A DNA stretch of 40,637 nucleotides, from sequence record PQ729991.1. One strand, 5' to 3'. The translations under genes and the position numbers were made by a program. This document shows positions 2,458-7,392 of this stretch, piece by piece. The notes under the pieces were generated by a model. That model was not told the origin of the DNA and did not search any database. It saw only the letters and a list, made by a program, of their open reading frames with translations. The DNA comes from Escherichia phage BUCT823. Position 1 is the first letter of the stretch; each line of letters opens with the position of its first letter.

Positions 2458-2687
2458 CCGAGTTCCAGTCGCGTGTATTTACGGCGGTCGTTTCCTTAAC
2501 ACGTAAAAAAGGGTCGTGCAGCGTTATGGACTTGCGCCGTAGTTATTTTAGGTACTATAGTTCCGCCATTATTGAAGGGTCGTTGAAGGTGCTGGTTAAA
2601 TCTGGTGTCGTGAAAAATGTTGGCGGGAAATATAGTGCTGTCGCTGAAGTTCGCGGAATGGCCGCTACTTTAGAAGACCTGGAATAA
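2454..2687 (+). CDS. hypothetical protein (77 aa) ending in ...TLEDLE
   Basis: ORF track; translationally coupled to the upstream gene; C-terminal EDLE tail shared with primase-helicase and exonuclease. Confidence 0.6.
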   Translation: MTEFQSRVFTAVVSLTRKKGSCSVMDLRRSYFRYYSSAIIEGSLKVLVKSGVVKNVGGKYSAVAEVRGMAATLEDLE

Positions 2688-2745
2688 AAGAAAGCCCCGA
2701 CGCGGTGAACGCCGAGGCCAAATTACTTGCTGAAGGAAATACAAC

Positions 2746-4983
2746 ATGTCCGATGTAATTTTATCCTACTCGTGGTCTCGTCGCAACGCGCGGGCCGAGA
2801 AAAAGGATATAAACGTCAGAACCACACACACGGCAACGCTGGACGACCTGAAAGATTTAATCCAGCCGCTTGATGCTGTCCGTGACGGAATTAACCCGAA
2901 GACCGCACCTGGTTACATCACCGCTGCGTGCGACTCTACGCACAGCACCGTAAAAGACCCGGAAACAGGTGACTTTAAGCAAGCGCGTAAAGGCTTTTTC
3001 TATCGCTGCGACGCGTCTGTAAGCAAATCGTCGCTGGCGTACCTGGACTTTGACAGTGCAACCCTGGAAGAGTATCAGGAAGCTGTGCGCCTGGTTAAGC
3101 GCAGCCGGCGGGCGATGTGCCTCTATACCACGGCATCACACACAGACGAAGCCCCGCGCTTTCGCGTCGTCATGCCGCTGGCCCGCCCGGTCGAAGGCGG
3201 CAACATCATCCGTGTTCGCCATGGATTACTGGAGCACTTCTTCAAAGGCATGGGTGCCGACCGCAGCGGGTTCACTCTTTCGCAGCCGATGTACTTGCCT
3301 CCTGTCGGCGCTACCGTTATCTGGTCGCGCCGCAACGACCTGATTGACCCTGATGAGTTACTGGAAGGCGTCCCAGCCGTTGACATCAGCAGCGCATCTG
3401 ATTACCAGATACCGGAAGAACTGCGCACCGCGTTTACAGATGCGTTTGAAGCACTGGCATTCGAGTACGGCGGCATCATGACGCCGCGTGGCCTTAAGAT
3501 GCCAGCTACGCCAGAACACGCAGAAAACTACAGCGACCCGACACCACGCCCGGACGACTTCCTGTTATGTTTCCCGCGCGAGGGATACGAAGCGCCGAAC
3601 GTAACCATGATTCACGACACCGACATTGCCGCGACCGAAGGAATGCCCCCGAAAGAAGTGTGGAAATACGCGTGTGATGCGACCGGACTGCCGTTCAGTG
3701 AAGTCGCCGAGGCTATCGGATGGGGTGCGCGTGAATCTGTTTCATGCAGCCTCGACGACCTGGAAGACGAGGGCTCAGAAGAGGACGAGCTACCGGAACC
3801 GGTAAAGGCTGATTTCGTCGTTGAGGGGTACATGCCGTCAGATTGCATATGGGATATTGTCGGTGAATCTGGTACGTACAAATCATTCTATACGCTGGGG
3901 ATGATGTACCTGAGCGCCGCCGGATACCGGTTTGCAGGGGCGGATACCCAGCGTTGCCACCATTTCTATATCGATGGCGAAGGCGGTGCAGCCACACGCA
4001 CACGTATCGATGCGCTCGCGGCTAAATACGGCGCAGAGGGTAAAGATTATGTACACGTCATCGACATGGGCGAAGTCGGCAAACTTAAAAGCCTGATTAA
4101 GTTAATGCGCGAAACTGCGGGCGATGAACCTATCGGCATGGTCGCGTTCGACACCCTTAACCAGACCCTGGCCCTGACGATTGATAAGTTCGACGAGAAC
4201 AGCTCATCAACGGCAATCGGTATGGGTAAAGTTATCGCCATCCTGAAAGAAGTACGTGATGCGACTAAAGCCGCGGTGGGCGTCGTCCACCATACACCGA
4301 AGGGTGGAAAGAAAGCCCGCGGTAGTGGGGCGCTGTATGCGGGCGTCGACGTGGAACTGACAATCGAACGCGCCACTGACCGTCAGATAAACGTATACCA
4401 CTCTAAATTTAAGCATGGGCCTCAACAGAAGACGGTTGGCATGGTGCTGGAGTCGGTACAGTTCCGTGAAGCGCCACCACCGAAAGAGTACCGTGCGGTT
4501 GAGTTCCTCGGTAGCACAGAGGAATACGGCACAATCGTAAACCTCGACCTGCCGGAACCGCACAAGGCGCTTGTGCTGATGCCGTGGGGCTTCGAGCCGT
4601 TCAAAACTGACGAGGAGAAAGAGCGGGAAGAAGGGATGACAAAGGAAGGTAAAGAAAACGTAAAGAATGCCGTAAAACGTGGGAAGGATGAAGGAAGGAA
4701 GGAATCCATACTCGCCGCGCTGGAAGACCTGCAACAGTCTGACGACACCGGACGAGGTTTTACCCAACGGCAGATAGTATCGAACTCGGGTGACCATGCC
4801 ATCACTAACCACCATCTCGAGAAGATGCTGAAAGACGGTGAGTTGATGCTAGGATGTGATGCTAACGGCGAGGTTATCCCCGGTACATACCGTATACCGG
4901 AAAAGATGGGTGACAGATTAAGACCAAAGACAATATACGAACCGAATGAGATGCTGATAGTGACCGAGGAAGATTTGGAATAG
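2746..4983 (+). CDS. bifunctional DNA primase (AEP-like prim-pol N-domain) / RecA-fold replicative helicase (745 aa)
   Basis: N-domain has LDFD and SHTD motifs typical of archaeo-eukaryotic-type primases; C-domain has Walker A GESGTYKS and Walker B MVAFD; GAAGGA RBS. Confidence 0.75.
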   Translation: MSDVILSYSWSRRNARAEKKDINVRTTHTATLDDLKDLIQPLDAVRDGINPKTAPGYITAACDSTHSTVKDPETGDFKQARKGFFYRCDASVSKSSLAYLDFDSATLEEYQEAVRLVKRSRRAMCLYTTASHTDEAPRFRVVMPLARPVEGGNIIRVRHGLLEHFFKGMGADRSGFTLSQPMYLPPVGATVIWSRRNDLIDPDELLEGVPAVDISSASDYQIPEELRTAFTDAFEALAFEYGGIMTPRGLKMPATPEHAENYSDPTPRPDDFLLCFPREGYEAPNVTMIHDTDIAATEGMPPKEVWKYACDATGLPFSEVAEAIGWGARESVSCSLDDLEDEGSEEDELPEPVKADFVVEGYMPSDCIWDIVGESGTYKSFYTLGMMYLSAAGYRFAGADTQRCHHFYIDGEGGAATRTRIDALAAKYGAEGKDYVHVIDMGEVGKLKSLIKLMRETAGDEPIGMVAFDTLNQTLALTIDKFDENSSSTAIGMGKVIAILKEVRDATKAAVGVVHHTPKGGKKARGSGALYAGVDVELTIERATDRQINVYHSKFKHGPQQKTVGMVLESVQFREAPPPKEYRAVEFLGSTEEYGTIVNLDLPEPHKALVLMPWGFEPFKTDEEKEREEGMTKEGKENVKNAVKRGKDEGRKESILAALEDLQQSDDTGRGFTQRQIVSNSGDHAITNHHLEKMLKDGELMLGCDANGEVIPGTYRIPEKMGDRLRPKTIYEPNEMLIVTEEDLE

Positions 4984-5010
4984 GCAAAAAGAAAGGGGCG
5001 TTAAGCCCCT
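4984..5010 (-). terminator. rho-independent terminator for the leftward XRE-regulator transcript
   Basis: stem AGGGGC/GCCCCT with 5-nt loop; on the minus strand it is followed by a T-rich run (TTCTTTTTGC). Confidence 0.5.
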
Positions 5011-5844: not shown

Positions 5845-5866
5845 GGCGGCCTTCGGGCCGCTTTAA
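5845..5866 (+). terminator. weak rho-independent terminator or attenuator
   Basis: GCGGCC-TTCG-GGCCGC hairpin followed by a short TTT. Confidence 0.35.
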
Positions 5867-5881
5867 CTGAGGGTCGGAAAT

Positions 5882-6154
5882 ATGATTTACCAACTCTATC
5901 GCGCCGTAGACAGGCGGGATAACACAGAGGCGCTATGGCTATTGCGTGCGCCGTCCGGTGCGCACCAGATGGAAGAGATGGCGTACTTAGGCAAAGTACC
6001 GCGGCCTAAAGATATAGGCCGTCACGTGTCGCAGATTAAGCGCACGACTTTCGCAAAACCTGACTTTTATGTCTTCGAGTCGATGTATAGCTGGGCTATG
6101 CATTGCCAGCACCAGACCAGACATCTAATTGACCAGTGGGAGAACAGGGCATGA
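5882..6154 (+). CDS. hypothetical protein (90 aa)
   Basis: ORF track; GAGGG RBS; stop overlaps the start of the exonuclease gene (ATGA). Confidence 0.55.
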   Translation: MIYQLYRAVDRRDNTEALWLLRAPSGAHQMEEMAYLGKVPRPKDIGRHVSQIKRTTFAKPDFYVFESMYSWAMHCQHQTRHLIDQWENRA

Positions 6155-7392
6155 TTTTAAAAGAACGCGGCGGCAATAACGATGTTCACGCATTACTGTC
6201 GCCGTCAGGTGCTAAAAAATGGCTGTCATGCGCTGCATCACTGGCCTGTGAAAAAGATATTCCTAACACGTCCGGCAAAGCTGCCGTTACAGGTACCGCG
6301 TGCCACACCATAGCAGAGATGCACCTTAACCAGTACATCAAAGGCACCGCGTTGCCGTTAGAGCGCGAAGTTGGCGCTTATGTTCTGGATGAGGGTAAAG
6401 GCCAGATTAAGGCGCTAATCAGTCCGATGAAAGGCGTGGTACTGATTACGGCGGACATGATTGAGCAGGTGCGCAAGTACACGGACTACTGCAAGGCGGT
6501 TATCGACGTAGCGACTTACGCCAAGCTGGAAATGCGCGTCAATCTTACTGAAGTATTGCATCCGGGGTATGAAGGCGTTGAGACGTTCGGAACCGCTGAC
6601 CTTGTTGCCGTTCAGGAACTGGCTAACACCGACGAGCGCATGCTAATCATCGGCGACCTGAAAACAGGACGGCATCGCGTCGAAGCGAAAGAAAACAAAC
6701 AGCTTATGCTTTACGCTCTTGGTGTTTATCGCCGACTCAAGAGACGTTATAACATCACCGTGGTTCGTCTGGTCATCTTCCAGCCATACGCGGGAGGTGC
6801 GTCGGAGTGGGACATCTCGGTTGAAGGTCTGGAACTGTTCGCTAAGTTCGCACAGAAACGCGCGCTGTTAGCGCTTGATGCTTATTTCCGCGGTAAGAAG
6901 AACCTGAAAGCGTCGGACTTCAGGCCGTCGGTCGATGGTTGTCAGTGGTGTAGGTTCTCGGAACAATGCGCCGCGCGTACAAAGACGGTTAATTCCGTAC
7001 TGGCGGAAGAACTGGAGGACGACTTTGCGCTGGAACTCACTCCTGAGCAACTCGTAGCTGAGTATGAGAAGTTGCCGTTGTTGCGCCAGCACATCGACAA
7101 GGTTGAAAAAGCTATGGCTGCCGCGTTGCATTCCGGTAAGAAAGTTCCAGGGTACAAGCTGGTGGAGGGTAAGATGGGCAACCGTGCGTGGAAAGACGCA
7201 GAGAAAGTAGCAGAACTCTACGGCGACAAGCTGACTAAAGAAGTGCTCATGACGCCAACCGAAGCTGTTAAAGTGATACCGGAAGAAGAACTGAAAGACT
7301 TCATCACACGTAAGCCAGGTGTCCCATGCGTCACAACGGCAGACGACAAACGGCCCGAGTGGAATCAGGTTAGTGAAGAAGATTTGGAATAA
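6151..7392 (+). CDS. PD-(D/E)XK family exonuclease, Cas4/DUF2800-like, with C-terminal Cys cluster (413 aa); ends ...SEEDLE
   Basis: GDLKTG...E.K nuclease-like core and CQWCRFSEQC cysteine cluster; ATG at 6151 (the track start at 6136 is GTG). Confidence 0.65.
   Translation: MILKERGGNNDVHALLSPSGAKKWLSCAASLACEKDIPNTSGKAAVTGTACHTIAEMHLNQYIKGTALPLEREVGAYVLDEGKGQIKALISPMKGVVLITADMIEQVRKYTDYCKAVIDVATYAKLEMRVNLTEVLHPGYEGVETFGTADLVAVQELANTDERMLIIGDLKTGRHRVEAKENKQLMLYALGVYRRLKRRYNITVVRLVIFQPYAGGASEWDISVEGLELFAKFAQKRALLALDAYFRGKKNLKASDFRPSVDGCQWCRFSEQCAARTKTVNSVLAEELEDDFALELTPEQLVAEYEKLPLLRQHIDKVEKAMAAALHSGKKVPGYKLVEGKMGNRAWKDAEKVAELYGDKLTKEVLMTPTEAVKVIPEEELKDFITRKPGVPCVTTADDKRPEWNQVSEEDLE

Follow-up and report, generated by a model that had tools for sequence, protein, structure and literature searches.

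A short acidic motif shared by the SSB, exonuclease, and primase-helicase of Escherichia phage BUCT823 as a candidate docking peptide

The window analyzed here, a stretch of 40,637 nucleotides (nt), is the genome of Escherichia phage BUCT823 (PQ729991.1), a Kagunavirus (Guernseyvirinae) with ~90% DNA identity to Escherichia phage BUCT825 and Shigella phage phiSD1. Four proteins of its replication-recombination block—a 77-amino-acid (aa) protein (p77), a primase-helicase, a DUF2800 Cas4-like exonuclease, and a gp2.5-like DUF2815 protein that binds single-stranded DNA (ssDNA), here called the ssDNA-binding protein (SSB)—carry a motif of the form [S/T]-x-x-D-L, and the EDLE tails in which three of them end are probably copies of one shared docking motif. 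We report the identity of this motif, its conservation, selection on it at the peptide level, its co-variation between exonuclease and SSB, its portability between proteins, and its loss where DUF2815 is replaced. The SSB is our tentative candidate for the main receptor, and the full statement, a shared docking motif read by the SSB OB domain, is plausible while still somewhat short of probable. The features concerned are as follows.

2454..2687, + strand: p77, a 77-aa protein with a predicted winged-helix fold and a tail (open reading frame [ORF]; PHROG 5169)
2667..2684, + strand: p77 tail motif, T-L-E-D-L-E-COOH
2746..4983, + strand: primase-helicase with two motif copies (AAA_25, PHROG 3228)
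3748..3768, + strand: internal motif of the primase-helicase, S-L-D-D-L-E-D, in the acidic linker just before the AAA_25 helicase domain
4963..4980, + strand: primase-helicase tail motif, T-E-E-D-L-E-COOH
6151..7392, + strand: DUF2800 / PD-(D/E)XK (Cas4-like) exonuclease (PF10926, PHROG 69)
7372..7389, + strand: exonuclease tail motif, S-E-E-D-L-E-COOH
7479..8105, + strand: gp2.5-like SSB/annealing protein (DUF2815, Enc34_ssDNA-bd; PF10991, PHROG 112)
8040..8060, + strand: SSB motif, S-V-N-D-L-E-D, directly after the OB fold (FGG..)
8061..8102, + strand: acidic run DEEDEA of the SSB, followed by its basic terminus, PRRERRRR
8167..10350, + strand: family A DNA polymerase (PolA), without a disordered motif copy

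A first-pass annotation, made from the sequence alone, had placed EDLE ends on p77 (..ATLEDLE), the primase-helicase (..IVTEEDLE), and the exonuclease (..QVSEEDLE), and both their positions and their sequences proved correct. These three proteins are the only ones with a [DE]L[DE] C terminus among 503 stop-to-stop ORFs of ≥40 aa in six frames. Given the amino acid frequencies of the window, EDLE is expected at a C terminus with a probability of 1.3e-5 per protein and ~1e-3 times among ~70 proteins (P of three or more, ~1e-10); three EDLE ends are beyond chance. When the motif was defined more strictly, as [ST]xxDL with acidic residues or the C terminus next, it occurred five times in six-frame ORFs of ≥60 aa (31,502 residues), and all five copies lie in the four proteins named above: TLEDLE (p77), SLDDLED (helicase linker), TEEDLE (helicase end), SEEDLE (exonuclease end), and SVNDLED (SSB). 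The linker copy (nt 3748 to 3768) had been overlooked in the first-pass annotation, which had listed NDLEDDEEDE near the C terminus of the DUF2815 protein as an acidic stretch; the stretch is present (7479 to 8105 encodes ...SVNDLEDDEEDEAPRRERRRR), and its NDLED is a copy of the same motif, not merely acidic sequence. The motif Leu lies 0 to 4 residues from the end of the protein or is fully internal. Given these internal positions, the motif is not confined to C termini, and the conserved unit, as relatives show, is [S/T]-x-x-D-L in an acidic, disordered context, not EDLE-COOH. No disordered copy was found in PolA, SNF2, VRR-NUC, p165, or p90; one regular-expression match in PolA, FSEADLKK (residue 13), was dismissed because it falls within folded sequence (the 3'-5' exonuclease motif I region) and has basic residues after it.

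Conservation was examined in 74 IMG/VR loci and in annotated phages representing Kagunavirus, Jerseyvirus, PSDA-2, Dhillonvirus, and a 40-kb clade (loci L055 to L062), referred to here as clade X. The tail was present in 72 primase-helicases and 74 exonucleases (of ~75 loci), and at the level of clusters, 120 for each protein, ~115 for the primase-helicase and ~118 for the exonuclease keep it. Primase-helicases of different clades still keep the tail at identities down to 26 to 33%, with ends of ..VTEEDLE in Kagunavirus, ..TTEGDLE in Jerseyvirus, ..ATDDDLKD in Dhillonvirus, and ..ASDEDLNS in clade X. The helicase linker copy occupies the equivalent position in all clades (CTLEDLED; CDEEDLAD in Jerseyvirus, CTDEDLDD in clade X, and CTDADLDN in Dhillonvirus), and the SSB copy is likewise kept in all clades, where the same position reads ASTDDLED, ATDSDLDD, ANDDDLDD, CSDEDLGD, or ATDDDLGD. 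Within a genome, the carriers share a clade-specific flavor, T-E-x-D-L-E in Kagunavirus and Jerseyvirus versus T-D-x-D-L-[GDSNK] in Dhillonvirus and clade X. An extra internal copy (..ATDEDLGDD..) is found in an exonuclease insertion at about residue 298 in L004 and L055 to L077 (Dhillonvirus and clade X); the shorter Kagunavirus enzyme has no such copy. The motif codons vary synonymously (GAA/GAG, GAT/GAC, TTG/TTA/CTG/CTT, and AGT/ACA/TCC), and all three stops, TAA, TAG, and TGA, are used. Synonymous variation is free at the DNA level and the amino acids are retained, so it is the peptide that is under selection. A docking role would have been undermined by tails that were absent or unconserved in orthologs, the comparison proposed in the first-pass annotation; tails were kept across four clades, and the idea survived strongly.

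The primase-helicases of Kagunavirus are mosaic, with identities to the window protein of 27, 53, 63, 86, and 97% among otherwise very similar phages (L007, L017, L019, L023, and others), and some database clusters match at 94% identity over just 53% of the query. Both motif copies are retained in every mosaic variant. In Salmonella phage PSDA-2 (L003:2380-4679), frameshifts or sequencing errors have split the annotated primase-helicase into four fragments, the final one with the motif twice in tandem (..TDINDLEDSQPTSEEDDLEN).

The exonuclease and SSB tails can be followed across the wider DUF2800-DUF2815-PolA module. The window exonuclease matches PF10926 (3.9e-68, over residues 13 to 402), PF12705 (3e-9), and PHROG 69, and its tail falls outside the Pfam domain because the model stops at residue 402 of 413; there, SEEDLE follows ..DDKRPEWNQV and matches SVNDLED of the SSB. 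The SSB itself matches PF10991 (7e-16) and PHROG 112, "Gp2.5-like" (1e-41), with PDB 4JG2 and 5ODJ as closest solved relatives. Among 150 DUF2800 representatives, drawn from 11,873 hits at E ≤ 0.001, the segment past the last Pfam-modeled block (..DKRPA..) almost always holds an acidic-aromatic peptide with the consensus DDFxD[LVI], a nearly invariant Phe, and often a terminal ..DL[IVL]. The exonucleases of 62 distant loci (APSE-like and others) end in tails such as ..NDFDDVSDDALAADLI, and 58 of these loci have a matching tail, such as ..DDFDDISEGADAEALI, on the adjacent DUF2815 SSB; the primases of these loci, VirE-type or other, have no tail. Exonuclease and SSB tails shift together, as in the pairs ADDFRDL/ADEFATL, EVDFQ/EADFADD, and AEGFSEV/MSGFTST and in a non-acidic pair from L243:9968-11838 (KSLFKPV in the exonuclease, STLFKPV in the SSB). 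For 87 distinct exonuclease tails, the best 6-mer in common with the cognate SSB tail scored 21.1, compared with 16.8 ± 0.4 for shuffled partners, and a smaller test of the last four residues gave P = 0.01. Because exonuclease and SSB tails co-vary family-wide, EDLE can be read as the local version of an old feature, in which the exonuclease wears the tail of the SSB. The primase-helicase and the small proteins gained the tail as well in the lineage of Guernseyvirinae, Dhillonvirus, and clade X.

Three features of the tails themselves deserve mention. In the L243/L244 clade (L244:3055-4873 for exonuclease and adjacent SSB), the chemistry of the motif has changed in concert in both proteins: the exonucleases carry ..KSLFKPVVK or ..KSLFEPVKK, and the SSBs read ..STLFKPVGR.. 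or ..SNLFEPVGR.. and then have a basic end. The exonuclease and SSB tails of L096 to L158 (e.g., L103), from APSE-like enterobacterial (pro)phages, read ..NDFDDVS.. or ..DDFDDIS.. and are close in sequence to the C terminus of E. coli SSB, which is ..MDFDDDIPF. In the window (8061 to 8102), L004, and L055 to L077, the SSB tail is a blocky polyampholyte in which, past the motif, acidic runs alternate with PRK or RRRR blocks. Kagunavirus has a single pair of blocks, Dhillonvirus and clade X have three to four pairs, and 4 to 5 Arg or Lys residues always come last; such a basic end is unusual, as SSB tails are normally acidic throughout.

In two groups of loci, L217/L219 and L239 to L242, a non-homologous protein occupies the DUF2815 slot (no Pfam hit; hhalign probability of 0.15% against the DUF2815 profile). 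PolA is retained in these loci, and the exonuclease ends without the acidic-aromatic motif. The replacement protein (L219:11155-11814 and L241:8178-8804; also in L217, L239, L240, and L242) is ~210 aa long, with conserved GHGWIAWG and SSVGGKR blocks and a basic end, and matches PHROG 9528, labeled nucleotidyltransferase; it may be an unrecognized SSB or annealase. No relatives of the tail-less exonuclease P0317 turned up in a scan, and one with exonuclease P0355 returned mostly ordinary tailed relatives. A search for Rosetta-stone fusions turned up four longer DUF2800 proteins (P0254, P0255, P0259, and P0309), none with a recognizable extra domain.

The small tail-bearing proteins differ between lineages. 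The gene for p77 is the last before that of the primase-helicase, and its product matches PHROG 5169 (function unassigned); no sequence family matched in Pfam, and a PDB sequence search gave nothing meaningful. Its AlphaFold2 (AF2) model has a predicted local distance difference test score (pLDDT) of 90, with helices at residues 3 to 19, 24 to 30, and 37 to 50 and a beta wing at residues 53 to 66, and is thus predicted to be a winged-helix domain of three helices and a beta-hairpin wing. Foldseek matched the model to the winged-helix domains of T4 MotA, the LexA DNA-binding domain, HrcA, and RPA32C (template modeling [TM] scores of 0.6 to 0.72, E ≥ 6e-3). Tailed orthologs turned up in Kagunavirus (..ATLEDLE) and Jerseyvirus (..ATPEDLE) alone. 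All 18 homologs that were aligned retain the tail, a single one having A as its last residue, and all relatives returned by the homolog search have at least 86% identity. Clade X has no p77. There, an unrelated ORF of 61 to 66 aa ends ..TATDEDLE in 7 of 7 loci; it lies between the SSB and PolA genes at ~10.39 to 10.76 kb and overlaps the PolA start (e.g., L056:10417-10609), and one of the seven has a divergent body with the same tail. The motif is thus portable, having been grafted onto different lineage-specific small proteins. The clade X ORF looks like another small tail-bearing adaptor, and p77 might be a DNA-bound or protein-bound adaptor that recruits the module through its tail.

The following arrangement would account for these patterns. 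The [S/T]-x-x-D-L motif would imitate the beginning of the C-terminal tail on the gp2.5-like SSB that the phage itself encodes and would be displayed on the flexible ends and linkers of proteins that create or mark ssDNA, namely, the primase-helicase, the Cas4-like 5'-3' exonuclease, and p77. With two copies per subunit, the primase-helicase would present twelve per hexamer, if it is hexameric as is usual for replicative helicases. A single receptor in the replication-recombination module would read all of the copies, the best candidate being the tail-binding surface of the SSB OB domain. Helicase, exonuclease, and p77 would then plug into the SSB, or into the end of an SSB filament, and pass nascent ssDNA on, much as Red-beta is loaded by lambda Exo. 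The polymerase may be a further target of these tails, as gp5 is for the T7 gp4 and gp2.5 tails. The first-pass suggestion of a common docking peptide fits this arrangement in that conservation, co-change, and portability agree with what it predicts; its strictly C-terminal location is contradicted by the internal copies.

We favor the SSB as receptor because of tail contacts seen in crystals, the tail loss where DUF2815 is replaced, and the precedent of exonuclease-annealase loading, and we consider its OB domain somewhat more likely than PolA. In crystals, the C-terminal tails of three DUF2815 proteins and of T7 gp2.5 rest on the OB domain of a neighbor, where they contact the concave sheet and N-terminal strands with 842 Å2 buried, and in the authors' model these contacts are compatible with bound ssDNA (PMC5686142). 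The chain of 4JG2 ends ..AADDFTTIEDD. In a single-sequence AF2 model of the full-length SSB, made for docking of its own motif in cis, the mean pLDDT was 41, too low to read. It could also be that the SSB and PolA are both receptors, as in T7.

Several points weigh against the SSB as receptor or against the docking interpretation itself. The crystal contacts could be packing artifacts, and they use Phe/Tyr-type motifs, not the D-L form of the present clade. The window SSB continues from its motif into a basic terminus, which has no T7 counterpart. PolA, SNF2, and VRR-NUC are also candidate receptors because they co-occur with the motif almost everywhere. Although none of 20,000 shuffles reached the exonuclease/SSB 6-mer score of 21.1, the shuffling ignores relatedness. 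Imperfect cases also exist: in L221, the exonuclease tail is basic versus DDSDL in the SSB, and in L230, both tails are weak. The "natural experiment" of DUF2815 replacement represents one or two evolutionary events. Finally, that the motif binds anything, as well as which protein it binds, is what we infer from the patterns above.

A bolder and doubtful extension is that the motif serves as a portable "SSB-tail mimic," in which five residues on a floppy end suffice to plug into the tail-binding site of a gp2.5-like SSB, and multivalency (twelve copies per helicase hexamer plus the alternating acidic and basic SSB tail) assembles a replication-recombination compartment or a capped SSB filament. 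If true, this would amount to a general, evolvable recruitment code for the DUF2800-DUF2815-PolA module, which has >11,000 exonuclease cluster representatives. The module is among the commonest replication-recombination cassettes of tailed phages of both Gram-negative and Gram-positive hosts. A co-evolving shared tail may offer a cheap handle, a peptide of 6 to 10 residues, for mapping the interaction hub of the replisome, and could flag new replisome accessory proteins from sequence, such as p77 and the 61-aa ORF of clade X. The tail could also explain how the Cas4-like exonuclease is coupled to the gp2.5-like annealing protein, which bears on recombineering tools built from the pair, and the principle of shared acidic tails known from T7 would then also cover a nuclease and an unrelated type of helicase.

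Shared acidic tails are known as replisome docking handles from T7, bacterial SSBs, and T4 clamp-binding proteins. In T7, the acidic tails of the helicase and SSB bind basic patches of the polymerase gp5 (PMC8472574; PMC12339929). The analogy with T7 gp4 and gp2.5 drawn in the first-pass annotation is apt, in that the phage SSB here is of the gp2.5 OB-fold type and a short acidic tail recurs, within one phage, on replisome proteins that are not related to each other. As in T7, the primase-helicase has such an end (..VTEEDLE) and the SSB has one after its OB fold (SVNDLEDDEEDE, then PRRERRRR), and several tails per helicase hexamer would make a multivalent tether. The C-terminal Phe anchor of T7 is missing; the last residues here are E, S, A, D, or N, and the conserved hydrophobic residue is Leu. 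Also unlike T7, the motif is internal in places, the exonuclease and small lineage-specific proteins carry it, and the SSB tail runs into a basic terminus.

The bacterial SSB tip (..DDDIPF) is likewise an acidic-hydrophobic peptide on a disordered tail that acts as a general docking handle, and the distant DUF2800/DUF2815 tails (DFDDV and DFDDI) are similar to it. The tip consensus D-D-D-[IL]-P-F-COOH is not seen here, as there is no P-F and the motif is internal in the SSB and also present on its partners. In bacteria, the SSB alone carries the peptide and its partners carry the pockets, whereas here the partner enzymes carry the peptide of the SSB. The beta-clamp motif (QL[SD]LF type) does not match either, with no Q or F in the five window copies. 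In T4, several proteins (gp43, gp55, gp33, and others) bind one hub, the clamp gp45, through C-terminal tails. Unlike that system, no sliding clamp was recognized among the replication-block genes examined, and the chemistry of the motif is different.

The pairing of exonuclease and SSB parallels lambda Exo-Red-beta and RecE-RecT, where neighboring genes encode a 5'-3' exonuclease and an ssDNA-annealing or -binding protein. The annealase Red-beta is bound by lambda Exo and loaded onto the resected strand, for which a specific contact is needed (PMC6393309, abstract). There, a folded C-terminal domain of Red-beta makes the contact, whereas here a short exonuclease tail mimicking the SSB tail would do so, and the folds differ, being DUF2800 and a gp2.5-like OB protein. 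Enc34 ORF6, PDB 4JG2, and 4KLK belong to the same SSB family (PF10991), and their acidic tails lie on a neighbor's OB domain in crystals; unlike that of the window SSB, these tails are aromatic (DAY, DDF) and acidic to the end. Excerpts of the Enc34 ORF6 paper (PMC5686142) contain no mention of a tail shared with an exonuclease or helicase. The literature searched gave no description of tail sharing, either in the DUF2800/DUF2815 module or in Guernseyvirinae, an absence that is not proof of novelty. What seems new is a Leu-based, not necessarily terminal motif; its carriers, namely, an exonuclease, a two-copy AAA_25-type primase-helicase, and small proteins; the display of the SSB's peptide by its partners; and the basic blocks in the SSB tail.

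A first alternative keeps the shared docking peptide and makes PolA the hub, as in T7, such that the tails of helicase, SSB, exonuclease, and p77 bind basic patches of PolA, polymerases are kept at the fork, and the 5'-3' exonuclease is brought to the ends of Okazaki fragments. In T7, the gp4 and gp2.5 tails bind gp5 at its front basic patch as well as at further basic patches, and up to twelve copies on a hexameric helicase would suit the retention of spare polymerases. Of the large replisome enzymes here, only PolA lacks a disordered copy of the motif; no 5'-nuclease domain was matched in it, and 55 of the 62 distant loci with shared tails encode it. The exonuclease tail, however, is absent in the two clades that keep PolA and have DUF2815 replaced, the hydrophobic anchor is a mid-motif Leu instead of a C-terminal Phe, and the polymerase matches Taq, Bst, and Klenow only weakly over ~100 residues, with T7 gp5 not among the matches. 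Because of T7, we take PolA seriously as an alternative, while rating it an unlikely hub.

Less likely again is that there is no common receptor and that each acidic tail is a DNA mimic acting in cis to auto-inhibit its own protein, with the resemblance reflecting convergent composition. All four carriers bind DNA or are expected to, and the acidic tails of T7 gp2.5 and T4 gp32 lower DNA affinity. Removal of the Enc34 ORF6 tail alters discrimination between ssDNA and double-stranded DNA (PMC5686142). Composition alone, however, does not account for four unrelated folds all having an unvarying D-L and, three residues before it, S/T, and it leaves unexplained both the shared clade-specific variants and the non-acidic co-varying form in L243/L244.

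We place at about the same low level, or slightly below it, a receptor in the host, such as a partner of the host SSB, the beta-clamp, or a chaperone, from which a peptide resembling the SSB C terminus would borrow machinery. All four clades with the D-L form infect Enterobacteriaceae, and the resemblance of the APSE-like tails (DFDDV and DFDDI) to the C terminus of E. coli SSB would fit. The motif nonetheless has neither the Pro-Phe-COOH by which SSB C termini are recognized nor the Gln and Phe of clamp-binding motifs, and a conserved host receptor would not predict tails that diverge by clade in step with the phage SSB, including the non-acidic SLFKPV.

An origin at the DNA or RNA level (a regulatory site, recombination hotspot, recent gene conversion, or coincidence, with the peptide as by-product) is essentially refuted, since motif and stop codons vary across the 74 related loci while the amino acids are kept, the p77 copy in the window differs at three synonymous positions, and the tail sequence is not a ribosome-binding site because the next genes are 59 to 87 nt off or convergent. 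In its favor were the 14 nt identical at two gene ends, to which the first-pass annotation had drawn attention (GAAGATTTGGAATA, with just two occurrences in the window, at 4969 and 7378, and none on the minus strand), and a terminator-like hairpin or strong promoter-like site after each tail-bearing gene; the identity is present and incidental, one codon combination among many.

The replication-recombination block also contains the following genes.

2287-2457: HTH_17 protein
Between the primase-helicase and p165: convergent repressor gene
5341-5838: p165, function unassigned
5882-6154: p90, function unassigned
Also in the block: VRR-NUC and SNF2 helicase

The order p165-p90-exonuclease is also found in Jerseyvirus, PSDA-2, and Dhillonvirus, and APSE-7 has a gene of unassigned function directly upstream of the exonuclease. 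The p165 protein is very acidic with a conserved C-terminal helix (..DEDLAEYLERL..KYFEEE), and the end of p90 overlaps the start of the exonuclease by 4 nt; p165 and p90 could be members of the same complex. Two identical strong sigma-70-like promoters (TTGACA, 17-nt spacer, TATAGT; 11 of 12 matches) lie at 5281 to 5309, preceding p165, and at 7397 to 7425, beginning 5 nt past the exonuclease stop and preceding the SSB gene. Terminator-like hairpins follow p77 (2693 to 2719) and the primase-helicase (4991 to 5012).

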